In this document: positions 1 to 25,037 of the stretch, one piece after another
Position numbering within the stretch: the first letter of the stretch is position 1
Layout of the letters: each line of letters opens with the position of its first letter
NCBI GenBank assembly: GCA_964342815.1
Contig: CAYFHS010000003.1
Location: forward strand, 1-64,000
Source: an uncultured archaeon
GTDB lineage: Archaea; Thermoplasmatota; Penumbrarchaeia; JASLWR01
DNA: 64,000 nucleotides
Direction: 5' to 3'
Position numbers and translations under genes: made by a program
Notes under the pieces: model-generated
The model's database searches: none
The model's input: only the letters and a program-made list of their open reading frames with translations
What the model was told of the DNA's origin: nothing

Positions 1-55
1 GAACATTTGGACTGACTTCTTGGTAAAGACGTGCCAGAATGGGACGGCTTTACAC
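1..55 (+). repeat. Partial unit of the 65-bp double-hairpin repeat family, truncated by the window edge
   Basis: GAACATTTGGACTGACTTCTTGGTAAAGACGTGCCAGAATGGGACGGCTTTACAC matches 23013-23067 at 50/55 positions, in the same orientation. Confidence 0.9.
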
Positions 56-11790: not shown

Positions 11791-13215
11791 ATGACTCAAA
11801 CGGGTGATGATGCAACAACTGAAAAGAATCTGAAGAAATATAAAAATGCTTTAAGGATTGCCTATGAAGACGGGGTGATCATTCCGGAGGAAAAGGATTT
11901 CCTCGAACTGAAGAAAAAGAAACTCGAAATCACGGATAAACAGCATCTTCGATTGGAGATAGAGGTACTCCTTGAACTGGGTCGTCAGGCTCTTGACAGA
12001 GAAAGGCTGGACGAATCCATCGTTTTTATTAATCAAATAATAGAAAGAGGGGAGGCGGACCTTGAAATATATGAGCTTCTTACCTGTCTCAATGTAATGG
12101 GCGGAGATTACGAAAAGGGAAAGGAGTCTATGGAGAAATGTGTCGAACTGGCAGCCAAGGAAGAATCTGGCGAGGAAGTTCCCGAAGGACCGGTGTGCCC
12201 TGACTGCAGTACAAGCATAAGACATATCGAGCAGTACGACAGATGGTACTGTGATGCCTGTAAAAAATATCTATCAAAGGATTTCAAACCGGGTGGAGTT
12301 GAGGAGGAACCAAAGGTAGAGGAGCCAAAATCCGCGGAACCTGAGCCTGCACCGGCAGCCGAGGAAAAGGCAGCGGAACCCACTTGTCCCGACTGCACCG
12401 GAAAGATAAGACATGTTGCTCAATACGATCGATGGTACTGCGACGCCTGCAAGAAATATATGGCAAAGGATTTCAAACCTGGCGAGAAGAAAGAGGAACC
12501 TGCTGCAGCGCCCGTCGTGGAAGAAAAACCGGAACCTAAAGCAGCAGAACCCGAGCCGGAACCAAAAGCATCTGCGGAACCGGCCTGTCCGGATTGCAGC
12601 GGAAAGATAAGACATGTTGCCCAATATGATCGATGGTACTGCGACGCGTGCAAGAAATACATGGCGAAGGATTTCAAACCTGGCGAGAAGAAAGAGGAAC
12701 CTGCGGCGGCACCTGCTGCCGAACCAAAACCTGCTGAACCTAAAGCCGAACCAAAAGCAGCAGCAGAACCGGCCTGCCCGGATTGCAGTGGAAAGATCCG
12801 ACATATCGCTCAATACGACAGATATTACTGCGACGCGTGTAAAAAATATATGGCAAAGGATTTCAAGCCCGGTGAGAAAAAAGAAGCAGCTCCTGCGGCG
12901 GCGGCACCCGCTGTAGAAGAAAAACCTGAACCAAAGGCAGCAGCGGAACCGGCCTGTACTGACTGCGGCGGCAAGATAAGACATATTGCACAATACGACA
13001 GATGGTACTGCGATGCCTGCAAGAAATACATGGATAAGGGTTTCAAGCCCGGTGGGAAAAAAGAGGCAGCTCCGGCAGCCGCGGCACCACAACCAGAAGT
13101 AAAGAAAGACCCGGCCTGTACCGACTGCGGTGGCAAGATACGGCACATTGCACAGTATGACCGATGGTACTGCGACGCGTGTAAAAAATACATGCCAACA
13201 GGCTTCAAAGCTTGA
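11791..13215 (+). CDS. Protein with an N-terminal helical/TPR-like region and six tandem Zn-ribbon repeats (474 aa)
   Basis: Six copies of C[P/T]DCx2-3[K/S]IRH[I/V]xQYDR[W/Y]YCDACKKY separated by Ala/Pro/Glu/Lys linkers. N-terminal YKNALRIAYEDGVIIPEEKDFL helical motif. Starts 17 bp after the pcn stop. Confidence 0.8.
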   Translation: MTQTGDDATTEKNLKKYKNALRIAYEDGVIIPEEKDFLELKKKKLEITDKQHLRLEIEVLLELGRQALDRERLDESIVFINQIIERGEADLEIYELLTCLNVMGGDYEKGKESMEKCVELAAKEESGEEVPEGPVCPDCSTSIRHIEQYDRWYCDACKKYLSKDFKPGGVEEEPKVEEPKSAEPEPAPAAEEKAAEPTCPDCTGKIRHVAQYDRWYCDACKKYMAKDFKPGEKKEEPAAAPVVEEKPEPKAAEPEPEPKASAEPACPDCSGKIRHVAQYDRWYCDACKKYMAKDFKPGEKKEEPAAAPAAEPKPAEPKAEPKAAAEPACPDCSGKIRHIAQYDRYYCDACKKYMAKDFKPGEKKEAAPAAAAPAVEEKPEPKAAAEPACTDCGGKIRHIAQYDRWYCDACKKYMDKGFKPGGKKEAAPAAAAPQPEVKKDPACTDCGGKIRHIAQYDRWYCDACKKYMPTGFKA

Positions 13216-13344: not shown

Positions 13345-16300
13345 TTACTTAAATCCCGTTCCGCATTCGGGACATTTCCCCTTGCCCTTTCCGCACTCCA
13401 TGTGCATCACCTTCGAGCACTGGGGACACTTCAACCCCGACAAGCCCTTTTTGATAATTTTCTTGCAGTTAACACACAGAGACGGCCTCTTGATTCGCAG
13501 CAGGGAAGGCGTTACCAATGCGGATTCGATAGATTCTTCCTCTTCCTGTCCTCCAAGCAGCCCGATAATATCGTCAACGGTTTTGTCGATACCTTTTTCG
13601 GATTCTATTGGTGTGGAAATATCAAAATCCCGGCCGGGTCCATGGTCGTCCTCTCCATGGACTTCCCAACCCGCTTCATCAACTGCTTCTGTTTTACCCT
13701 CTTGCCCCAAATCTTCCCATTCCCTACTTTCCGGAGATTTTGCCTCGAAAACCGTATCCGCACCCTCCCCTGTGCTTTCAACATCCACAGAGTCTTCCTC
13801 TTCACCCAAACTTGTCCTTTCCACTACCGAATGCTCTTCACCCCAACTCGTCCTTTCCACGGTGGCTTCTTCAACAATCGACTCCACTTCACTAAAACTT
13901 GACCTTTCTGCTCCCGCTTCATCTACAATCATTCCACCTCCATCCCAACCATCGAATTCCTCGTCCGATGCTTCATCAACCGTTTCACCACCCCAGCTTG
14001 CCCCCTCTTCGGTCTGACCTTCCGTTCCCTTTTCGGCTGTATCCCAAGTTCCTTCATCCTCGGTTTGATCGACCGCTGCCTCCATCTCACTCCCCCAACG
14101 TTCACTTACATCTTCTTCCCCGCTCGCCTCTTCGACAAAATCAGCCTCCACGATAGTTCCGGCACCCTCCTTCCATAGTGCCATTTTGTCTTCCTCCGGC
14201 TCCTCCACCGGGTCGTAATAAGCTTCTTCCTCTGCTCCATCCCCCCAAGGATATTCCAGCTGCGGTGATTCTTGTACGGGGGAGTATTCTACAGGTCTTT
14301 CAGGGGATTCCTCGACTTCTTCCATCGGGAGTGGAACAAGGGCTTCCTCCACTTCAGGGATTTTCGTTTTTTCATCCTTCTTTCGCCTCTTCCTACCAAC
14401 AAAGAGAAACATACCCACTACCATTATTCCCACAATGATGAGACCGTACCAACCAAGGAAACCCAGTACACCAAATACAAAGGGGAGTGCCTCGGAAAGT
14501 GGAACCTGCACCGGTGCGATGTACTGAACGGTCAACGGCTCGATCCAGACATTGCTCACATTGTCAACCACCTTCATATATACAGTCTGTTTGCTGTTGG
14601 ATTCCTTGTCGAACCCATTTCCTCGGAAGTCCCATTTCTTTAAGCCGTCTTTGTAGGGAACCGAAATCCAGGTCGCGTTGTCATTACTTAAGAAATACTC
14701 TCGAACTCCGCTCCCGGCATCATTGACCTGATCGAAACCGACATTGACATAGAATTCTTCCGTCGAGACCGACCGGTCGGTGGATTTGCCGTTGATGGTG
14801 ATGACACCTGCAGGGGCTTTCTCATCCCTTTCGATCATGATGGTGAATTTGGCCATGTTGCTGACATTATCGAAGACCCTGAAATCGTAATAACCGTTAA
14901 TAACACTATTACTGGAGATGACGTACTGAACTGTCTTAACAGCTCTATGAATCTCTGAAAAAAACACAGGAAATTCGATCTCACCAAATCCTGCACCAAT
15001 ATCTTCCACGGAACGGGATTTGAAGATGATCGTGAAGTTCTGGTCCTCACTGAATCCCTTTCCATAATACAAGGTCAAACTCTTCGGGTCATAATGTATG
15101 TAATTACTCTTTTCCATTATTTCAACATATGCCGGATCCACCGACATCGTATTGTCACGCTTCACCGTGATAAGAACTTGTATGGAATTGTTCACATTGT
15201 CGAATATATAAAATGCCCGGCTCTCATTGAAAGTGGAACCCGGCTTCACGGTATAGTTACGATAAAAGTTTGAGGAACTATCCACATGCACGAAAGCATC
15301 GTCTGTGAATAAGGCCGGGACATCTATTCTGGAAATGCCGCTGCCGCCGTCGGTGATATTATTTATTGCAAGATCGAACCACTGGGTAGAATCAAAATCA
15401 GCGTACCAGAGCCATATCTTGTTCGCATCCCGATACTCGGGGTGAATATGCTCACTTTCCTCGAAGATCATAAATGAATCCATCCGGGGGGTGACGTCGT
15501 CGAGGGTTATGTTCAATGTCAAGGACCTGACATTCCCCACCCGGTCGTACAGAATGAACTCAACTGCCCCCGGGTGTTCATCCGATAAGTTAAGTGCATA
15601 AGGGTAAAACTCAGCGGAGCTGAAGGATTCCAAAGTTGAGAAAATGGTGGGATAATGGATTTCCAGGTAACCGCTGAGATCATCGGAAATATTTGTAAAA
15701 AATGCTGTGAACTCCTGGGATCTCCTGATAAATTCATTATTGTAATATAGGGTCAGGTTGCTGTAATGTAAAAATGTGGATGACTCCTCGATATCGAACT
15801 TGTCGAAAGTGGGTGCGGTGGTATCCTTGACGACCATGATTGGGAGAAGAAGAACGTTCCCCACGTTATCCACAACGGATAGGTTCACGCCGCCCGTCAG
15901 GTTCATGGTGTTTTCAATATTATATGTCAGCTCATATGGAAGCAGGTCATCGATCTCGGTGGAATCCCAGTTAAATATCCCCGGGAATATCCCCCGGTAC
16001 AATCCGCTGTCATTATCATCCGATGAGTCTATGGTGATTCTGAACCACTCCGCGGCGCTCATTCCATGGCTGTAGTAGAATATACCCGCGGTCTCGTCGT
16101 AGAACATAAAGGATGACGATTCGCTTATGTTAATAGTTCCCACGGGGGCCTCGATGTCCCTTATCACCTCGAGAGTAAGTATGAGTTGGTTATACGTTCG
16201 GTCGTAGATGGCGATATTAATGGTGCCGGTGTTGATAGATGCTATATTTACACCATATTCACAGGAGTAGGGAAAGATAGGATCGTCGGTAATCGACCTA

Positions 16301-19300
16301 TTGAAAGCCTCCGGGAACAGTACCCCGCCGACTCCGCTTAGATTATCAAGGGAGAATGGTATGGTGATTTCGAAACTCTCTTGCGCTTCCATGTCGTCTC
16401 CGTAATACAGGATACCGTTGAGATCAAAATGGATAAACTCGCTGCTCTCATTGACAGTGAAGGTTGCTTCCGGGGCTTCGGTGTCCCGGATCACCGTGAA
16501 GCTCCATTCAAACGAGTTGTTCACGAGATCGTGAATGTTGAATTCCAAGGTCCCGTTGAAAGTATCCGAGGAATCGACCTTATACAATATATTGTACGGC
16601 AGCACGGACGAAAAGTTATTCATCAGACCGAATTCTTTGGGACAATAAATACCGTAAAGACCGCTTCCGTTGTCGACCGAGCCGTTGAACTGTACGTAGA
16701 ATTCCTGTTCCGCAGACATTTTGTCGCTGTAATAGAAAATATTTCCATCTGGATCATAATACAGATATTTCGAGTCCTCCGCAACGAATTTTTTTATTAT
16801 ATAAGGTACCTCGGTATCCTTGCTAACATTGATGGTGAGATTGAAGTAATTACCCACATTGTCATAAACGGTTATGGTCAGAACTCCCTCGTAGCTATCG
16901 GTGAGATTTATTCCGTATGAAAATGTGAATGGAGCTCCTTTTATAACACCTTCCGACTGGCCGAAGGCGGACTGAAAGGTAACGTTTGCCACGTTGCTGA
17001 GCGCATCGGCAACGCCAAGGGCCGTAATGTTTATCAGCTGCTCTATGGACATTTTTTCACTGTAATACAGAATATTGTCGTCATGGTCGTAATAGACAAA
17101 GCTTGAGCTGTTGTCCCAGATCTCGAATCCGGAGGAAACCGGGTCCTGGTTATCCACTTTGAAATGTACTGTTATTACCACCGAGCGATTCGCCTTATCC
17201 CACAGGGTCACTTCAACATCCACGTCATTTTGACTCAAAGGTACGATATAGCTAATATTCCAGGGCGCTGTGGCGGTAAGCGGTGTGCTGCCGAAAGCGT
17301 TAGAGCCGGATATATTTTCCTTGTTCACCTCGGTCCACAGGAATGAAAGGGTCAAGTTCTGACCCGCGCCCATCCCTGCCAGAGAATTGAACCACACGTC
17401 CCCGCCTGCGGCTCCAAGTGATTCATTATAATAGAATTTCTTGGAGGAATTCACGTCGATATCGGTTATCACGGGATCGTGAAGGTCGATGGTTATCGTG
17501 TCGGTCAACGAGGCGAAATTGCCAACTCTGTCCACGGCATAGACGTAGAACGTGACGAGCCCCTCCGTCCCGTTGTCGCTGTCTCCCGACACGCTGACAT
17601 TGACGTTCCATGGGGATTGATCATCACCCAAACGGTGTTCCTTAAATCCCGAGCCTGCACCGTCACCGGTGCTGTCGGTCCAGGTTACCCATATACGGGT
17701 ACTGTTCGAGTATTCACCGACGCCTCCCGGACCGTCGGGTCTGCACAGCACATTTGTGGGTGCTGCAGGATCATCGTTGTCCACCTTGAAATTTATCACC
17801 ACGGTATCTGTGTTATTGGCCTTGTCCACGACCCATAGCACCAGAGAGAGGTCGCTGCCCTGTCCGGGCTGGACCGGGAAGGGGATCTTCCAGCCGTCAG
17901 CTCCGTTGAAATCGTCGTACTTCTGGCCCCCGAAAACGCTTGACACGTTCACCTTGTCCCTGTAAGGTTCGGTCCATGCAAAGGTGATTGTTATCGTCTG
18001 TCCTGCGCCTTCGCCTGCGTTGCTGTTGAACCACACGTCTCCGCCGTTTGTAGGATGGATCCCCGTGGTATAGTAGTACCTCGTCTTATCAGAGGAAACG
18101 CTTATGGCATCAATAGTGGGTGGCCCGGTATCCACAACGATCCAATCGCTCCCCACGGGACAGTAGTTGCCTACGTTATCGGCAACTGTCAAGTAGAACG
18201 TCTGATTTCCCTCGCCCCACGTCTCAGAATGATGACGGTTATCCAGGGTATCATTGACGGGATTGGGATTATTAATTTGTGCGTAATACAACTTGATATC
18301 GCTCCCTCCTTGATCGTCCATAACAGGCGTCCAATAGAGGAACACGAGGGCATCGTCATCATACTTGTAATAGGTCTGTTTGTCATCGGGATCGCATCTT
18401 ATGTTGATGGGTGTTTTAGGGGCATAGACGTCTCTCCTGACATTTACAACTGTTATGGCATAATTGTTTACCCGATCGTAGATGGTGACATTGATGGTCC
18501 CGTTGAAAATATTCTGTTTCTCGATGGAATAGCTCAGGTCGTAGCGTGAGCTGTAGGAGCTGTCGGTGGGACTGTCGCCGAAACGGTTCTCGCCCACGCC
18601 GCGGTAGAGACCGGCGGTGGCGTCGCTGCACTGGACCCTAATATCGAATTGCGGTTCGTTTACGGTGTTATTGTAGTAAAACACCTTCGAGGTGGAATTG
18701 TAATAAAGGTTATCATTATGAAGTACTTCGGACAAGCTGGTGGAGGTGACGGTTGGAGCGGTGGTGTCCAGGGTAACGTCGAACTGTATAGTTTTGCTTC
18801 TGCCGACATTATCGTACACCGTCACGGTATAGGTTCCGGCATCGTTACGGGCGACCTCGATACTGTAGTCGAGATAGTGGCCGGACTGATAGGAATTGTT
18901 GGTGGGCGTGTCTCCGAAAATGGTCGCTCCGTGGGACTGGTTCCGCCCGGACCCGGTATCGTCGAAGGTCACAATGAGCTGGAACATTATGGGGATGGAG
19001 CTGTTATAATAGAGATCCTTGCTCCCGCTGCTGTAATAGATGTTGCTGACGTTGGAGAGCTCGTTGATGTTGGGGATGGCAAGGTTATCGGGGTCGTTGG
19101 CATCGAAGTTGAAGGTCATGCTCGTGGAATTCATGTTGTTCACGTGGTCGTAGATATAGAGGGTTACAGTGATGTTTCCGGTACTGTCATCCCCCACGTC
19201 GTAGGCTATGTATGAGCCGCCGGTTCCTGCATTCTGGGAAAGATTATCGTCCCCGTCGTTACTGGAATCCCAGTCCATCTCGCCGCTGCCGAGACCGGAA

Positions 19301-22300
19301 CTGGCATCGGAATTGGTCCAGGTGAAATGGAAAAGGCCGTTCTGGATGATCTCGGGATCGAACCAATCCATTCCCCATCCGGTGAAGTCAGGAGTTTCCG
19401 TGAGGGCGAAATTGGAAAGGGACGGTTTGGCGTTATCGAGGGTAACGGTGAGGTTCGTTATATTCCAGTTACCGCAGTTGTCGGACACGTTAACTGTAAG
19501 CGAGCCGTCGCAGTTCTCGTCGACGTTTACGGTATATGTAAGCGACCAGTAATTACCGTTGGTGTAATCGGAATCGGTGGGCGAATTGCCAAAAGCGGTC
19601 TCACCGGATGCGTTCTGCCTGCCTGAACTATCCTCGTTATCTGTAGTACGTATCTCGAAGGTGTCGGACATGGCCTGGTCGCTGGAGAAGTACAGAGTAG
19701 AGCCGTTCCAGTAGACGTTATCGCCTGTAGTTACAACGGTACTTATAGTCAAAGTGGGTGCCGCGTTGTCTAGGATGACGGTTAGATTGTAAGTGCCGTT
19801 GTTCCCGCAGTTGTCGTATACAGTGATCGTGAGATTTCCAGTGCAAGTTTCTCCTTGGGAAATTGTGTATTGAACTTGCCAAACATTTCCATCGTAAGAA
19901 TTATCACTGGGTGATTCACTGAAGGCAGCTTCTCCTTCAGCCTTCTGACGCCCACAACCAGATTCGTCATCTGTGATGAATATCGTAAACGAATCGGTCA
20001 TTCCTTGATCATTTGAGTAATAAAAAAAATCATTATTACTATCAAAATATAGATTATCTGATGATTCAGATACAGTTAATAGTGACGGAACGGGTGCTTG
20101 ATTGTCTATTGTTACAGAAAGATTCGTTGTATTCGTATTTCCAACTTTATCAAATACAGTAATAATAATATTGTCTCCGTTACAGGTCTCTCCTTGATTG
20201 ATAGTATACTGAAGCTCCCACCATATACCACCATAATCATTGTCTGTGGGAGAATCTCCTAATTCAGTTTCACCCTCCGCTTTTAATCTCCCGCTCCCTC
20301 CTTCGTTATCTGTTACTCTGATAGTAAACGATTCACCCATAGCCTGATCATTAGAATAAAATAATACACTATTATCATAATTAATATAATTACTTGATTC
20401 ACCTATATTGCTTATTGCGACCCCAGGTACTTCCGTATCCCTGGTCACGTTGAACGTACAATTCGCGCTGTTGTTCACCATGTCGTAAAAGGTTATTGTA
20501 ATTACTCCCTGCCAGCTGTCGCCGTTGCCCACCTCGTCGTACTTCCCGAGCCATGCCGCGGGGGAGCCGTCGGGGTTCGGACTTCCAAGATTATTGGACG
20601 AGAAAGTGCAGTTAAAGAGACCTGCACCCGCATCCGTGGCCGTCCCCGTAACGTTGAAAGCCTGTTCTGCGCTCATCCGGTTGCTGTAAAAGATGGTGGT
20701 GCCGGATACATAGAGAAAATTGCTGTTCTCGTTGGCAGACAGTGAAGCTATGGCCGGGCCGGTGATATCGCGGGTGATGACGAAGGTTGAAGAATCCACG
20801 AACTGGTTCCCGCAAAGGTCGGTCACCGTTATCGTCAATGCGCCGCTGAAGCTGTCGCCGTTGTTAAAATAATATATCGCTGTGGCGTTATCGGATTTCT
20901 CGATTATCTGATCGGTCTGCTGGTCCACTCCCGGGCCCACCGAGTAGCTAACGTTCGATAGGTTGTAATTATCGGAAAAGCCGAAACTTATGGTAGCGTC
21001 CACCGGTCCGGCACCCATGCCGTTCCCGTAATATATCGTATTATCCGTGTTGTCGTTGGTGAGCAAAACGTAAAGGTACTTCGACGACTCATTCCAGTCC
21101 CCATCGGTTATCTGGGGCGCCGTGGTGTCCCTCACGAGAGTATAATTGAAAGTAGCCGTATTGTTCACCCGGTCATGTAATGTTATAGTCAAATTACCCT
21201 GTACGTTATCAGCCGAGCCAACGCTGTCGTATGTGCCGCTCCAGGAAGCCGCCGATTCGTCATCCGCCGGGCTGCCAAGGGCATTGCCGGGGAATACCAT
21301 CTTCCACAAGCCGGAAAGATTCTCCTCGGCATTCCCGGTGATTGTGAAAGACTGTGCATTCTGCATGTCGTCGCCGTAATATATCGTTGTTACATTGTAA
21401 TAGATAAAATGGCTGTTCTCCGTGACCGTGTGCGAGGTGATATTTGGGCCCCAGGTATCCCGGGTGCATGTGAGATTTACGTAACCGACGTTACCGGCCA
21501 TATCGATTAGTTTCACCATCACCGAGCTGTCGGTATCGCCTGCGCCGATGGAATAGGTGGCCGAGTCATACGGAGCATTGAGATCGTTGTTGGGCCCTTC
21601 ACCGAAACTGTTGCCAAACCGAACGCCGTACTCGTAGTTCTGCCACCCGGAGAACTGGGCTGAAATATTGAAATCCGCCTCGTGGTCGGTGTAATACAAT
21701 TCATCGTTCCCGCTGTCGTAATAGATAAAATCGAGATCAGACAATTCCGCGACAGATATGGTGCCGGTGGGTAAGGTGGTATTGCAGATCACCCAGTTGG
21801 ACATTACCACTTCCGTTGAATTATGGCCGGTCAAATCCACGGCGCATATGTAAAGAGTGTAGTTACCGTCATTATTCACAGTGTAATCGTCATCCTCGGC
21901 ATAATTTCCACCGGTCTGACCCCATGCCGTGCCGATACGGTAATGTGATATACCCGAACCGCCGGGGTCCGAAGCAGCATTCCAGCTCAGATCCACGATA
22001 AGATCGTCGTTGAAGTTGGATTGTGGGCCAAAGCCGTCACCCGGATTATCATTGGCATCCCCCGAGAACTGGAAATTTGAGGGGACTGCAGGTGCAACTG
22101 TATCGGCTTCCGTAACGGAAGAGCTTATGGCATTGGCGGGAACCTCGCCATAGGTGGAATTTATCGCAGACGCATTGATGGATATATTGAATTGAGTTCC
22201 GTTGCTGATTATTGCCGAAGTACGAATTATTATGTAGAAATTGGGTGTGGCAGGGTCGTTATTGGGGATGGTCACCCCGGGAGCAAAGCTGATAGTTAAA

Positions 22301-22743
22301 TTCCAGTATGTGCCGTTACCAGACCACTGTCCTACGGTGCCGGCTCTGACGTCCTCATCAGCCTGGAAACCCGCGCTGTTGCCGTTATCCTGGTAAATGG
22401 ATACACCGGAATCATTATCATTGGTCAGCGGGGCCAGGTCATCAGTTGGGTCGAAACCGGAAGCGTTGTAAAAAGTAATGTTTATCCAGTTTATATCGTT
22501 GTCGGCTCCCTGCGTATTATTGTGAGCGGTTATATTGAGCATGCAGACCTGAACGCTTGATTCGTTCACCCACCCGGGAGCCTCATCATCGGTGCTTATG
22601 GTAAGCTCGCCTTTTGCCTGGCCGCCAAGCATCATGAATACGATAAGAACGGCAATACCGGCTATTGTCAGGGAGATTACCCTGAGTAATCGAGGGGAGA
22701 ATATGGAAACGGATTCCCGCTTCACGGCAGCGTTTTGATACAT
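13345..22743 (-). CDS. Giant cell-surface protein (3132 aa): signal peptide, ~23 Ig-like repeats including 3 FnIII-like domains, TM helix, acidic cytoplasmic tail, C-terminal C4HC3 Zn finger
   Basis: N-terminal hydrophobic segment. Repeated ~100-aa units end in D-x-[V/C/A]-[G/N]-N...RDxxAP (about 23 such turns counted). Many N-x-S/T sequons. TM GVLGFLGWYGLIIVGIMVVGMFLFV is followed by RKRRKK. C-terminus CVNC-x12-CPQC-x4-H-x2-C-x6-CPEC. SD GAGGT upstream. Confidence 0.85.
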   Translation of the reverse strand: MYQNAAVKRESVSIFSPRLLRVISLTIAGIAVLIVFMMLGGQAKGELTISTDDEAPGWVNESSVQVCMLNITAHNNTQGADNDINWINITFYNASGFDPTDDLAPLTNDNDSGVSIYQDNGNSAGFQADEDVRAGTVGQWSGNGTYWNLTISFAPGVTIPNNDPATPNFYIIIRTSAIISNGTQFNISINASAINSTYGEVPANAISSSVTEADTVAPAVPSNFQFSGDANDNPGDGFGPQSNFNDDLIVDLSWNAASDPGGSGISHYRIGTAWGQTGGNYAEDDDYTVNNDGNYTLYICAVDLTGHNSTEVVMSNWVICNTTLPTGTISVAELSDLDFIYYDSGNDELYYTDHEADFNISAQFSGWQNYEYGVRFGNSFGEGPNNDLNAPYDSATYSIGAGDTDSSVMVKLIDMAGNVGYVNLTCTRDTWGPNITSHTVTENSHFIYYNVTTIYYGDDMQNAQSFTITGNAEENLSGLWKMVFPGNALGSPADDESAASWSGTYDSVGSADNVQGNLTITLHDRVNNTATFNYTLVRDTTAPQITDGDWNESSKYLYVLLTNDNTDNTIYYGNGMGAGPVDATISFGFSDNYNLSNVSYSVGPGVDQQTDQIIEKSDNATAIYYFNNGDSFSGALTITVTDLCGNQFVDSSTFVITRDITGPAIASLSANENSNFLYVSGTTIFYSNRMSAEQAFNVTGTATDAGAGLFNCTFSSNNLGSPNPDGSPAAWLGKYDEVGNGDSWQGVITITFYDMVNNSANCTFNVTRDTEVPGVAISNIGESSNYINYDNSVLFYSNDQAMGESFTIRVTDNEGGSGRLKAEGETELGDSPTDNDYGGIWWELQYTINQGETCNGDNIIITVFDKVGNTNTTNLSVTIDNQAPVPSLLTVSESSDNLYFDSNNDFFYYSNDQGMTDSFTIFITDDESGCGRQKAEGEAAFSESPSDNSYDGNVWQVQYTISQGETCTGNLTITVYDNCGNNGTYNLTVILDNAAPTLTISTVVTTGDNVYWNGSTLYFSSDQAMSDTFEIRTTDNEDSSGRQNASGETAFGNSPTDSDYTNGNYWSLTYTVNVDENCDGSLTVNVSDNCGNWNITNLTVTLDNAKPSLSNFALTETPDFTGWGMDWFDPEIIQNGLFHFTWTNSDASSGLGSGEMDWDSSNDGDDNLSQNAGTGGSYIAYDVGDDSTGNITVTLYIYDHVNNMNSTSMTFNFDANDPDNLAIPNINELSNVSNIYYSSGSKDLYYNSSIPIMFQLIVTFDDTGSGRNQSHGATIFGDTPTNNSYQSGHYLDYSIEVARNDAGTYTVTVYDNVGRSKTIQFDVTLDTTAPTVTSTSLSEVLHNDNLYYNSTSKVFYYNNTVNEPQFDIRVQCSDATAGLYRGVGENRFGDSPTDSSYSSRYDLSYSIEKQNIFNGTINVTIYDRVNNYAITVVNVRRDVYAPKTPINIRCDPDDKQTYYKYDDDALVFLYWTPVMDDQGGSDIKLYYAQINNPNPVNDTLDNRHHSETWGEGNQTFYLTVADNVGNYCPVGSDWIVVDTGPPTIDAISVSSDKTRYYYTTGIHPTNGGDVWFNSNAGEGAGQTITITFAWTEPYRDKVNVSSVFGGQKYDDFNGADGWKIPFPVQPGQGSDLSLVLWVVDKANNTDTVVINFKVDNDDPAAPTNVLCRPDGPGGVGEYSNSTRIWVTWTDSTGDGAGSGFKEHRLGDDQSPWNVNVSVSGDSDNGTEGLVTFYVYAVDRVGNFASLTDTITIDLHDPVITDIDVNSSKKFYYNESLGAAGGDVWFNSLAGMGAGQNLTLSFLWTEVNKENISGSNAFGSTPLTATAPWNISYIVPLSQNDVDVEVTLWDKANRSVVITVHFKVDNQDPVSSGFEIWDNSSSFVYYDHDDNILYYSEKMSIEQLINITALGVADALSNVANVTFQSAFGQSEGVIKGAPFTFSYGINLTDSYEGVLTITVYDNVGNYFNLTINVSKDTEVPYIIKKFVAEDSKYLYYDPDGNIFYYSDKMSAEQEFYVQFNGSVDNGSGLYGIYCPKEFGLMNNFSSVLPYNILYKVDSSDTFNGTLEFNIHDLVNNSFEWSFTVIRDTEAPEATFTVNESSEFIHFDLNGILYYGDDMEAQESFEITIPFSLDNLSGVGGVLFPEAFNRSITDDPIFPYSCEYGVNIASINTGTINIAIYDRTYNQLILTLEVIRDIEAPVGTINISESSSFMFYDETAGIFYYSHGMSAAEWFRITIDSSDDNDSGLYRGIFPGIFNWDSTEIDDLLPYELTYNIENTMNLTGGVNLSVVDNVGNVLLLPIMVVKDTTAPTFDKFDIEESSTFLHYSNLTLYYNNEFIRRSQEFTAFFTNISDDLSGYLEIHYPTIFSTLESFSSAEFYPYALNLSDEHPGAVEFILYDRVGNVRSLTLNITLDDVTPRMDSFMIFEESEHIHPEYRDANKIWLWYADFDSTQWFDLAINNITDGGSGISRIDVPALFTDDAFVHVDSSSNFYRNYTVKPGSTFNESRAFYIFDNVNNSIQVLITVKRDNTMSVDPAYVEIMEKSNYIHYDPKSLTLYYGKGFSEDQNFTIIFKSRSVEDIGAGFGEIEFPVFFSEIHRAVKTVQYVISSNSVINGYYDFRVFDNVSNMAKFTIMIERDEKAPAGVITINGKSTDRSVSTEEFYVNVGFDQVNDAGSGVREYFLSNDNATWISVPYKDGLKKWDFRGNGFDKESNSKQTVYMKVVDNVSNVWIEPLTVQYIAPVQVPLSEALPFVFGVLGFLGWYGLIIVGIMVVGMFLFVGRKRRKKDEKTKIPEVEEALVPLPMEEVEESPERPVEYSPVQESPQLEYPWGDGAEEEAYYDPVEEPEEDKMALWKEGAGTIVEADFVEEASGEEDVSERWGSEMEAAVDQTEDEGTWDTAEKGTEGQTEEGASWGGETVDEASDEEFDGWDGGGMIVDEAGAERSSFSEVESIVEEATVERTSWGEEHSVVERTSLGEEEDSVDVESTGEGADTVFEAKSPESREWEDLGQEGKTEAVDEAGWEVHGEDDHGPGRDFDISTPIESEKGIDKTVDDIIGLLGGQEEEESIESALVTPSLLRIKRPSLCVNCKKIIKKGLSGLKCPQCSKVMHMECGKGKGKCPECGTGFK

Positions 22744-22870
22744 TTAATTACCTCTGGAATACAAAAAATGATGTCGATCATTCAAGCGTTGGTTACGGCA
22801 ACGATAGGAATGACACAATAGGTTAACACAGACCGTTATATATTATTGTTTTCGTTTTAAGGATTTATAA

Positions 22871-23132
22871 GTAAAGTCAGGAACATTTTGTGTCTGACTT
22901 ATTGGTAAAGTCGAGCCAGAATGGGTTGGCTTTACACGTAAAGTCAGGAACATTTGGACTGACTTATTGGTAAAGTTGAGCCAGAATGGATTGGCTTTAC
23001 ACGTAAAGTCAGGAACATCTGGACTGACTTATTGGTAAAGTTGAGCCAGAATGGGACGGCTTTACACTTAAAGACGGGAACAAAGTGACTGTCTTCTTGG
23101 TAAAGTCGAGCCATAATGGGTTGGCTTTATAC
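22871..23132 (+). repeat. Tandem array of four degenerate 65-67-bp units, each made of two related hairpins beginning GTAAAG (non-CRISPR)
   Basis: Units at 22871-22937, 22938-23002, 23003-23067 and 23068-23132. Consensus GTAAAGTCAGGAACATTTGGACTGACTTATTG + GTAAAGT[C/T]GAGCCAGAATGGGTTGGCTTTACAC. Confidence 0.92.
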
Positions 23133-23271
23133 GATAATGATTTTTTGGAAAATCCGAGAGTAGGTAAATCCAAGTTTTCAGTTGACTCTTTTATTGTACT
23201 GGTATACTCAATTTAAAATAATTTTATTCTTCGGAGAAAATTTTTCCAGAGCATTTCGGTACGGAAAAAAA

Positions 23272-23301
23272 TTTAAATCAGCATATCAATGCAATCGGTT
23301 A
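23272..23301 (+). promoter_or_regulatory. Promoter segment (TATA-like TTTAAAT plus downstream sequence) duplicated upstream of both carboxypeptidase-regulatory-domain paralogs
   Basis: TTTAAATCAGCATATCAATGCAATCGGTTA here vs TTTAAATCATCATATCAATGCTATCCGTTA at 25140-25169 (27/30 identical). Confidence 0.65.
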
Positions 23302-23330
23302 GAACATTTATTTTTATCGGAGGAGATCCA

Positions 23331-25037
23331 ATGAAAAAAGGATTCATAAGCAATTATTGGAAAATATTACCAGCCATAATGATCGCTTTCGCGCTTCTCA
23401 TATCTGGAGTCGGTATGGTCGGCTCGGTTGAACCTAATGTTAACACCCGCGGCTCGGGTATGGTTTCGGGATATGTATACGATAATGAAACCGGAGAAGT
23501 TATTCCAGACGTTGAGATCGACCTTTCTCACAAAGAATCGGACCATTCCTACCAGGATTATTCGGATGATGCTGGTTATTACGAGTTCGATGATCTTGAT
23601 GCAGGAGAATACAGGATCAGAGGCGACGATGAAAGGTATTATTACCATAAAGAATATTTTTCTCTATCAGAAAGTGAAAATCGGGAACACGATATTTATC
23701 TTGATCCATATGAATGTACCATATTTGGAAATGTATATGATGCGGATTCGAACGATCCAATAGAAGGAGCAAGTGTTTATTTAAAAATTAAAGAGGATGA
23801 TTACTATTATTATTATCTCCATGAATATACGGATATTGAAGGTTTCTATGAGTTCTTCATGCCCCCTGGTGAATACAGAATTGATCTAAATGCATATGGT
23901 TATGAACGCACTAGCAGGATTATTGAAATAAAAGAAGGAGAAGAACTTCAAGAGGATTTTTTTCTCGTACCCCTTAGTACTATCTCCGGAATTCTCTATG
24001 ATGGCGGAACATCAGAGCCTTTGCCGAATATTGAGATTGATCTACTCGAAGACGGGTGGTGGTATAGTTATGATTATTCGAATGAAACCGGGAATTATTT
24101 GATTTACATGGAAGCAGGCGATTATGTCTTACGGGTCCGTGAGAGAGGGTATGAAGATTTCGAATATGATTTCGAGATCAAAGAGGATGAACACATTGTT
24201 TATGATATTTACCTTGAACCCGATCTAACAGTACTCTCCGGATATGTATATAACCTATCCTCAGGAGAAGCTATCGAAGGAGCGCGGGTAAGTGGAGATA
24301 ATTATGATACATGGGATCGGGATACGACCTATACCGATGAAAAGGGATATTATGAACTCTATCCCGGAGTAGGTGAAGTGAGCATCTCGGTTTCGAAAGA
24401 CGGTTATAAAAGCGAATATGATTCTATCACAATGGAGGAAGACGTTGCGCAAGAACGAGATTATTATCTCGATCCATATGAATCAAGCTTATTCGGTAAA
24501 GTGTATGACGAAGAAACATCAGAAACGATATCATACGTTTATGTGACGGTTCAAGGTGAAGATTTCTACGAAACCGACTATACAAATAGTAATGGCGAAT
24601 ACTTTATTTATTTAGACGCGGGCGAATACTCGGTAAGTGTCTCCGAAGGGGGCTATGTCACTTTTAAAACAGATATCACCGTCGAGGAATGGGAAGATTA
24701 TCAGCTCGACGTTTATCTGGTGCCATTCAACTGTAAGGTCTATGGATATATTACCAATGAGGATGGTGAAGCCATCGAGGATGCATACATTAACATCTAT
24801 AATGATAACTACAGCGATTATTATTATTCCGATGACGAAGGATACTATGAGTTCGAATGTCCTCCAAGCAGTGAGGTTGGCGAATATAACTTGCGTGTTC
24901 AAGCCACCGATTATCGACCATATCAAGAACAGTTCTGGTTGGACCAGGGAGAAGAACTTCAAATAGATGTCGAGATGCAGGCACAATGGTCACCAGGTTC
25001 CGTCTGGAACTGGATATGGGAACTGATATTCGGATAA
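23331..25037 (+). CDS. Secreted protein with 6 carboxypeptidase-regulatory-like (transthyretin-like beta-sandwich) domains (568 aa)
   Basis: Signal peptide MKKGF...LLISGVGMVGS. Six repeats of the form ISGxVYD...PIxGAxV......T(D/N)xxGxYxxxxxxGxYxIxVxxxGY. Ends QWSPGSVWNWIWELIFG. SD GGAGGAG; the ORF track start at 23289 is probably too far upstream. Confidence 0.8.
   Translation: MKKGFISNYWKILPAIMIAFALLISGVGMVGSVEPNVNTRGSGMVSGYVYDNETGEVIPDVEIDLSHKESDHSYQDYSDDAGYYEFDDLDAGEYRIRGDDERYYYHKEYFSLSESENREHDIYLDPYECTIFGNVYDADSNDPIEGASVYLKIKEDDYYYYYLHEYTDIEGFYEFFMPPGEYRIDLNAYGYERTSRIIEIKEGEELQEDFFLVPLSTISGILYDGGTSEPLPNIEIDLLEDGWWYSYDYSNETGNYLIYMEAGDYVLRVRERGYEDFEYDFEIKEDEHIVYDIYLEPDLTVLSGYVYNLSSGEAIEGARVSGDNYDTWDRDTTYTDEKGYYELYPGVGEVSISVSKDGYKSEYDSITMEEDVAQERDYYLDPYESSLFGKVYDEETSETISYVYVTVQGEDFYETDYTNSNGEYFIYLDAGEYSVSVSEGGYVTFKTDITVEEWEDYQLDVYLVPFNCKVYGYITNEDGEAIEDAYINIYNDNYSDYYYSDDEGYYEFECPPSSEVGEYNLRVQATDYRPYQEQFWLDQGEELQIDVEMQAQWSPGSVWNWIWELIFG

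Follow-up and report, generated by a model that had tools for sequence, protein, structure and literature searches.

A 65-bp double-hairpin unit dispersed through an archaeal genome: a probable non-autonomous transposon of the PATE/REP type

The tandem array of double hairpins at positions 22871-23132 of the window, by which we mean the whole 64,000-nucleotide stretch of DNA that was analysed, very probably represents one site of insertion of a hairpin repeat that is mobile, dispersed and non-autonomous. The unit family is lineage-restricted, carries no transposase and is inserted precisely at sites that resemble a junction between two units, CTTTACAN^GTAAAG (a caret marks the junction here and below). 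For the reading as a whole, a non-autonomous single-strand hairpin transposon of the PATE or REP type, we arrived at a compromise figure of roughly 60%; taken separately, a mechanism of the Y1/HUH single-strand type stands at about even odds. The window is C3:1-64000 of the host genome (G000; 4.35 Mb in 116 contigs, 88.9% complete), and the genomes compared with it include a sister species (G001), a representative of another genus of the same family (G003) and a further family member (G002). The window is archaeal and encodes a two-domain tRNA-splicing endonuclease, whose nearest clusters, mostly from Thermoplasmatota, offer a lead, and a lead only, towards an assignment to that group.

Direct reading bore out the basic architecture given by the first-pass annotation, four head-to-tail units (67 + 65 + 65 + 65 bp) that each hold two hairpins, and Tandem Repeats Finder reported the same array at 22864-23133 with a period of 65, 4.1 copies and 87% matches. 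In each unit hairpin A, whose arms AAGTCAG and CTGACTT enclose a loop of 11 nt, comes first, then hairpin B and finally AC. Hairpin B is built of GTAAAG plus 7 nt, a 5-nt loop, and 7 nt plus CTTTAC; with up to three mismatches allowed, this pattern occurs four times in the window and in 0 of 100 shuffles. The array occupies a 545-bp gap between two divergent genes. The features are as follows.

1-55, + strand: partial unit at the very start of the contig, model positions 11-65
13345-22743, - strand: ORF of 3132 aa, a surface protein, left neighbour of the array
22836-22842, no strand: TTATATA box, in a stretch identical in the array-less sister species, part of an older divergent promoter region
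22861-22870, no strand: left flank of the array (GGATTTATAA), fused straight to the equivalent of 23133 in the sister species
22871-22937, + strand: unit 1, 67 bp, hairpin A at 22871-22904 (loop longer by 2 nt) and hairpin B at 22905-22937; nhmmer E 1.3e-16
22938-23002, + strand: unit 2, 65 bp, A1-type hairpin A plus hairpin B
23003-23067, + strand: unit 3, 65 bp, A1-type hairpin A plus hairpin B
23068-23132, + strand: unit 4, 65 bp, hairpin A of the A2 subfamily (AAGACGG/CTGTCTT), hairpin B of the rare subtype of unit 1, with the end CTTTATAC
23133-23147, no strand: right flank of the array, starting GATAATG; in the sister species the insertion sequence ISx abuts the equivalent of 23147
23289-25037, + strand: ORF of 582 aa, a surface protein with carboxypeptidase-regulatory-like repeats, right neighbour of the array

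Units 1 and 4 have a common hairpin-B subtype that is absent elsewhere in the genome, and unit 4 in addition carries the second hairpin-A subfamily. Hence the array did not arise by simple duplication but is a mosaic.

An iterated nhmmer profile recovered 81 unit matches at about 42 loci of the host genome, the partial unit at window positions 1-55 included, where the first-pass annotation had reckoned with the possibility of just two loci. These high-copy, intergenic, imperfect palindromes in mosaic clusters have the REP/BIME-like architecture that it had proposed. The tandem structure of the array would in itself suit an ordinary local duplication of a terminator or operator, but this explanation is refuted by the genome-wide census, with its 81 units, its many loci and its second species, and is further at odds with a unit 4 whose hairpin-A subfamily differs from that of units 1 to 3; we give it virtually no credence. 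Many copies are identical 65-mers (up to four each), and a locus holds one to five units, nearly always head to tail, with inverted pairs at two loci. At least 16 of the matches touch contig ends, which indicates that the units break the assembly. A run of N at C16:42415-42515 lies within a mosaic repeat locus beside two units and leaves that locus incompletely readable.

Outside the host genome the family is rare. The other-genus relative carries a diverged form with about 80% identity and was the sole positive among 40 relatives searched; no units were found in the sister species, in the further family member or in the rest of the 40. A search for the hairpin-B pattern in about 185,000 species, each represented by a single genome, returned 18 matches, all in one archaeal MAG resembling that relative, and one further match that is apparently due to chance. 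No genuine units were found in metagenome and viral collections: the hairpin-B pattern had zero matches in viral contigs, and a looser architecture pattern gave two matches in metagenome contigs that are chance-like and lack hairpin complementarity. Counts of GTAAAG-N17-23-CTTTAC agree with this distribution (45 in G000, 31 in G003, 3 in G001 and 0 in G002, with 3 to 8 in controls). In four marine runs the array had a summed depth 15-150 times as high as its flanks, and among their DNA contigs there was none spanning the array and no empty-site allele. No RNA run was found to contain the locus.

The most direct evidence for insertion comes from the sister species, whose genome aligns at 82-85% up to window position 22870 and then resumes directly at 23133. 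Three loci could be read as clean empty sites in this way.

Window locus: GGATTTATAA^GATAATG in the sister species, GGATTTATAA, 262 bp and GATAATG in the host
C3:68497: GAATAATCCA^GGCAAT in the sister species
C2:218227: GGGTAAAAC^GTAAAT in the sister species

At all three the inserted block starts with GTAAAG and ends with CTTTACAC, and no target duplication was observed between host and sister species. MITEs were rejected on these grounds, since the three empty sites show no duplication and the ends are the foot of a hairpin, not inverted repeats of the transposon type. At a fourth locus a mosaic of about 505 bp in the host is matched by 30 bp in the sister species, and the sites on C6, C5, C11 and C32 are unreadable as empty sites because the intergenic DNA of the sister species is too diverged or rearranged. 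At the single-unit sites C1:148204 and C16:36636 the sister species (L071 and L063) has other sequence of similar length, clearly a hairpin pair at the C1 site and possibly one at the C16 site, which suggests intergenic hot spots colonised by differing repeat families.

Over all loci the left flank reads CTTtACAn with 5.0 bits and the right flank GTaAAg with 5.6 bits, against 0.5 bits (maximum 1.2) for random sets of 8-mers. As both flanks together spell CTTtACAn^GTaAAg, the preferred target resembles the junction between two units. Each inserted unit would thus end in a target-like site and so make a new preferred site, and such regeneration would account for the stacks of one to five units and for the mosaics with GTAAAG modules. 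Read on the - strand, the flank directly before the element is TTNNC at the three empty sites (ATTATC, ATTGCC and ATTTAC), while the + strand equivalent lies 2 nt away.

The units are not uniform. In the host genome hairpin A falls into two covarying subfamilies, AAGTCAG/CTGACTT and AAGACGG/CCGTCTT or CTGTCTT. The stem AAGACGG/CTGTCTT of unit 4 had been read as a local compensatory mutation; the sequence is as reported, but it represents the second subfamily, which occurs at no fewer than 13 other places. In the other-genus relative hairpin A takes further forms, among them one with the stem AAGATGG/CCATCTT and one whose stem is longer and contains a bulged A, and its tag is GTGAAG, against GTAAAG in the host. 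Hairpin B comes in several subtypes, and at ten loci nested hairpins between GTAAAG and GCCAGAATGGG make it 40 to 200 nt longer. The extra segment of this long form is flanked by GTGCC repeats, and the short hairpin B could therefore be derived from it by deletion between the two repeats. Further modules likewise start with GTAAAG, one of them, of about 270 nt, being bounded by GTAAAG and CTTTAC.

Pairing in the stems is maintained despite this diversity. Among 33 distinct units of both genomes, standard pairs were present in 91.8% of cells, compared with 20-46% when partners were slid by one to three columns. Covariation, which the first-pass annotation had expected to see in a larger set of copies, was indeed found there: four pairs vary in both partners, three in stem A (A-T/T-A, C-G/T-A and A-T/G-C) and one in stem B (A-T/T-A), and the observed score was reached by no shuffle, a statistic that overstates independence because the copies are related. 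As stem variants coexist inside single arrays, shape would be what is recognised and not sequence. The purine-purine mismatch of stem B (alignment columns 43/53), earlier described as constant, is so in 26 of 26 distinct rows of the host type (G.G in 13, A.G in 8, G.A in 5) but not in the main subfamily of the other-genus relative, where seven rows have a G-C pair. The abundant subtype TTGAACC...GGGACGG carries an extra A.A mismatch, so that pairing in stem B is not strictly maintained.

The two strands are not equivalent. Wobbles lie on the + strand, as had been noted for the array and as the larger set confirmed (51 G.T cells versus 10 A.C cells), and with DNA parameters the + orientation is the more stable one in 27 of 27 distinct units (-12.0 versus -7.6 kcal/mol). 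For the whole array the folding energy is -47.1 kcal/mol on the + strand (z = -6.75, with 0 of 200 shuffles as good) and -32.9 kcal/mol on the - strand (z = -4.87). Within the unit, hairpin A begins 3 nt from the 5' end and hairpin B stops 2 nt before the 3' end.

A strand bias of this kind would also be expected if the units were small structured RNA genes or a processed small-RNA array made from the + strand, and RNA folding favours the same orientation in 26 of 27 units; the covarying stems and the large multi-hairpin modules of about 270 nt at some loci point the same way. We nevertheless consider this very unlikely. The copies are present or absent between sister species with exact borders, occur one to five to a locus and are spread over 42 loci in random orientation to their neighbours. 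No Rfam family reached its gathering threshold in the window, and near the array only noise with E > 2 was seen. The first-pass annotation had also pointed to the TTATATA sequence upstream of unit 1; its position is correct, but the stretch is identical in the array-less sister species, so that the box is older than the insertion and belongs to the flank. The suggestion of a processed small-RNA array with a promoter of its own is not supported in view of three results, the older box, the random orientation and the missing Rfam match.

All loci are intergenic. About nine lie in convergent gaps and four, the array in the window among them, in divergent gaps, and in unidirectional gaps about six loci are sense and about six antisense; the orientation of the units is thus random relative to neighbouring transcription. 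A link to giant surface-protein genes was considered and is not relied upon, as about 13 of 26 internal loci neighbour a gene of more than 800 aa where 28-33% are expected, a weak excess and a weak association. The array simply sits in a divergent promoter gap, and we attribute no host function to it. That the units might be immobile relics whose transposase has been lost and which the host retains or has put to use, for example as bidirectional terminators, as hairpins that stabilise mRNA or as sites for nucleoid proteins, seems unlikely to us. Loss of a transposase has a precedent in the CGTC-type REPs of bacteria, for which it has been proposed (PMC3733652), and no transposase was found in the host genome; many loci lie downstream of genes or in convergent gaps, and two sites have other sequence of similar length in the sister species, clearly two hairpins at one of them. 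Relics of this sort are, however, difficult to reconcile with identical 65-mers in up to four copies each, which speak for recent amplification, with the absence of any orientation preference, or with four loci in divergent promoter gaps, the array in the window included.

The search for an enzyme gave a mixed picture. In agreement with the first-pass annotation, no partner enzyme was found in the 64-kb window. Profile searches and tblastn with three Y1 proteins of relatives detected no Y1_Tnp (PF01797, 0 matches) and no TnpB in the host assembly; a weak tblastn match of a Y1 protein at C5:22471 was dismissed as noise. An IS110-family transposase on C110 (1579 bp) was also set aside, since this contig has 63% GC against 45% for the genome and is probably a binning contaminant. 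Nor did the neighbours of the units supply a mobile-element gene, which had been looked for beside the copies: the proteins near units in both unit-bearing genomes are syntenic housekeeping genes and a nine-member small-protein family, none of them consistently adjacent. This family of paralogues of about 165 aa (C11:46595-47092, C14:79005-79502, C33, C5, C1, C30, C15 and C3:96371-96856) possibly comprises winged-helix DNA-binding proteins, judged by eye; it is also present in the other-genus relative, and two of its members lie within 3 kb of unit loci.

Y1 genes are present in the sister species and in the other-genus relative. ISx is an element of about 750 nt with a single IS200-type TnpA of 163 aa, which matches solved IS200/IS605 transposases such as 2ec2 and ISHp608. 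The sister species has about 20 copies, many at contig ends, and the other-genus relative one full copy and a few ends; there is no ISx in the host genome, not even a fragment, and none in the further family member. Left junctions of ISx read N-TTTAC^TTAAAAA in six of seven cases and TTGAC in the seventh, and ten right ends stop at GTAGTTTAC^N. The junctions thus read TTTAC on both ends, from which it follows that ISx inserts 3' of this motif and also carries it at its own end. Both ISx hairpins are preceded on the 5' side by AACG. One copy in the sister species (L040, last 88 nt of C122) lies 15 nt from the empty site of the array, abutting the equivalent of window 23147/23148. The single PF01797 match of the other-genus relative is of the IS200 type (DHAH ... 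YIERQ motifs) and is flanked by its own ends and not by units, so that no REPtron, that is a Y1 gene flanked by units, was found there. A second Y1 element has a full copy in the sister species (G001:C65, L075), and the host genome, in which no Y1 gene was found, contains two mini derivatives of it that consist of left and right ends (about 160-185 nt; C40:4941-5125 and C36:42977-43132) and resemble PATE-like remnants.

These findings bear in two directions on a Y1/HUH mechanism. The host assembly lacks Y1_Tnp, TnpB and any ISx fragment, and Y1 presence does not track the units: the host genome has units and no Y1, the sister species about 20 ISx copies and no units, the other-genus relative both, and the further family member neither. 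Moreover, the palindromes at the two ends of IS200/IS605 elements are as a rule alike, whereas hairpins A and B differ from each other. Neither ISx nor the second Y1 element has hairpins related in sequence to A and B; all that they share with these is the layout AAxG-stem-loop-stem-N1-3-TTTAC. Since its hairpins differ and its presence does not track the units, the TnpA of ISx itself is a doubtful candidate for the mover. A Y1 enzyme supplied in trans remains the best candidate in our view, with a roughly equal chance of being right or wrong.

According to the mechanism that we favour, the element would move as folded single-stranded DNA through a peel-and-paste reaction of an IS200/IS605-type HUH (Y1) enzyme acting in trans. 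In every module the hairpin is preceded directly by AAAG, which could serve as the guide, and its 3' foot contains TTAC, which could be the cleavage and target site, as in IS608. Read on the - strand, every unit stands directly 3' of TTNNC and itself ends in CTTTAC, the rule seen for ISx; on this model an enzyme would cleave after ...GACTTTAC and join the end to a TTTAC target. The + strand is the better folder, whereas the end and target rule fits without a 2-nt offset on the - strand, which suits the logic of the insertion sites better, and either of the two may be the active strand. As to the Y1 gene missing from the assembly, the copies may be recently amplified orphans, or the gene may lie in the unassembled 11%.

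Two further possibilities take the place of such an enzyme. Insertion without duplication at a palindromic, junction-like site, together with the tyrosine recombinases present in the host genome, might suggest double-strand sites, with CTTTAC-AC-GTAAAG as the core for an Xer-like or integron-like tyrosine recombinase or for a dimeric DNA-binding protein that inserts or amplifies units. We regard this as distinctly unlikely, given that the spacer between the arms is just 2 nt, that a double-stranded circle of 65 bp is implausibly small and that the units do not bound gene cassettes; two stem variants in one array indicate that a shape is recognised, the strand asymmetry of the wobbles is unexpected in duplex sites, and none of the tyrosine recombinases is restricted to the two genomes that bear units. 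The other possibility, something of a long shot, is that the unit of 65 nt amounts to a minimal single-strand transposon, self-targeting, whose copies have built up in a genome devoid of Y1/HUH enzymes and are moved by an undescribed enzyme or by a host replication or repair activity on GTAAAG-footed hairpins, or that the unit has been domesticated; if the latter were true, archaeal genomes would have a REP-like system of their own, independent of RAYTs.

The closest archaeal precedent for the units is provided by the PATEs of Haloquadratum walsbyi and other haloarchaea, which go back to IS200/IS605-type transposons (PMC3119063). In PATEs the palindromes lie close to the ends, inverted repeats are lacking and the target is not duplicated; they occur in terminal-only forms of 52 bp and as nested insertions, and undergo repeat-mediated deletion of their core; strain-specific insertions are known in Haloquadratum despite broken IS200-type transposase genes (PMC3119063). 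The unit resembles them in being archaeal, too short at 65 bp for a transposase, free of terminal inverted repeats and equipped with palindromes near both termini, and also in the lack of target duplication, in nested elements and in having long and short forms that may be connected by loss of the DNA between short direct repeats (GTGCC here). Unlike for PATEs, no resident insertion sequence with matching palindromes was found, the two palindromes of the unit differ from each other, head-to-tail arrays reach five units, every module has GTAAAG/CTTTAC feet, and the host is a marine Thermoplasmatota.

With bacterial REP, BIME and REPIN sequences the unit shares short, intergenic, imperfect hairpins and a conserved tag 5' of the stem (PMC3733652, PMC6006769, PMC3479197), as well as subfamilies in which the two arms of the stem change in complementary fashion, many G.T pairs, mosaic clusters and a lineage-restricted, patchy distribution. 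As in some REPs ('double-foot'), the 3' end repeats the tag in reverse-complement form. However, the tag of the unit is GTAAAG, in hairpin B paired with CTTTAC, whereas the REP tag is an unpaired GT[AG]G; units are mostly arranged head to tail, whereas REPs mostly form head-to-head and tail-to-tail dimers; and neither a RAYT gene nor a REPtron was found with the units. All GTAG REP families surveyed belong to bacterial phyla (PMC3733652). IS608 is cut and inserted 3' of TTAC; AAAG, directly next to the hairpin foot on its 5' side, reads this site as a guide, and the reaction neither adds nor removes DNA (PMC3201880). The unit shares with IS608 and the IS200/IS605 group subterminal hairpins, the AAAG guide, the TTAC target and duplication-free insertion (PMC3201880, PMC5027513), and the sister species and the other-genus relative carry an insertion sequence of this group with the target TTTAC. 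It differs from IS608 in its length of 65 nt without a gene and in the distance from cleavage site to hairpin, which is 1 to 4 nt and not 10 and 19. CRISPR arrays were dismissed, as conservation extends over the whole unit and unique spacers are absent. The same holds for integron attC sites and cassettes, since units abut without an ORF between them, are dispersed and have no co-occurring recombinase. The attC consensus is 5' RYYYAAC ... GTTRRRY 3', and the polarity of the feet in the unit is reversed (5' GTAAAG ... CTTTAC 3').

A REP/PATE kind of element is already known, and the present case, tidy and experimentally tractable as it is, involves no new principle. It adds a REP/PATE-like hairpin repeat family in a marine Thermoplasmatota-type archaeon, exact empty sites in a sister species, a two-flank target logo, the IS608-type reading of AAAG and TTAC, an IS200-type element specific for TTTAC and the comparison with PATEs. 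Clear borders, clear empty sites and an IS608-like signature make the units readily accessible to in vitro tests with short oligonucleotides. The two sister species, one with about 20 IS200-type copies and no units and the other with at least 80 units and no transposase found, together provide a natural experiment on the mutual replacement of transposases and their miniature derivatives.

Some coding features of the window may be recorded separately. It contains two giant ORFs, of 3132 aa (13345-22743, - strand) and 7277 aa (33290-55123, - strand), and a crude ORF call for the whole genome gave 434 ORFs above 800 aa, 89 of them above 1500 aa. A 474-aa ORF has several zinc-finger and zinc-ribbon matches that are weak and below threshold. 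In-frame coding tandem repeats were observed at 12217-13089, within this ORF, with units of 180 and 189 bp, and at 111-1091, with units of 51 and 39 bp.
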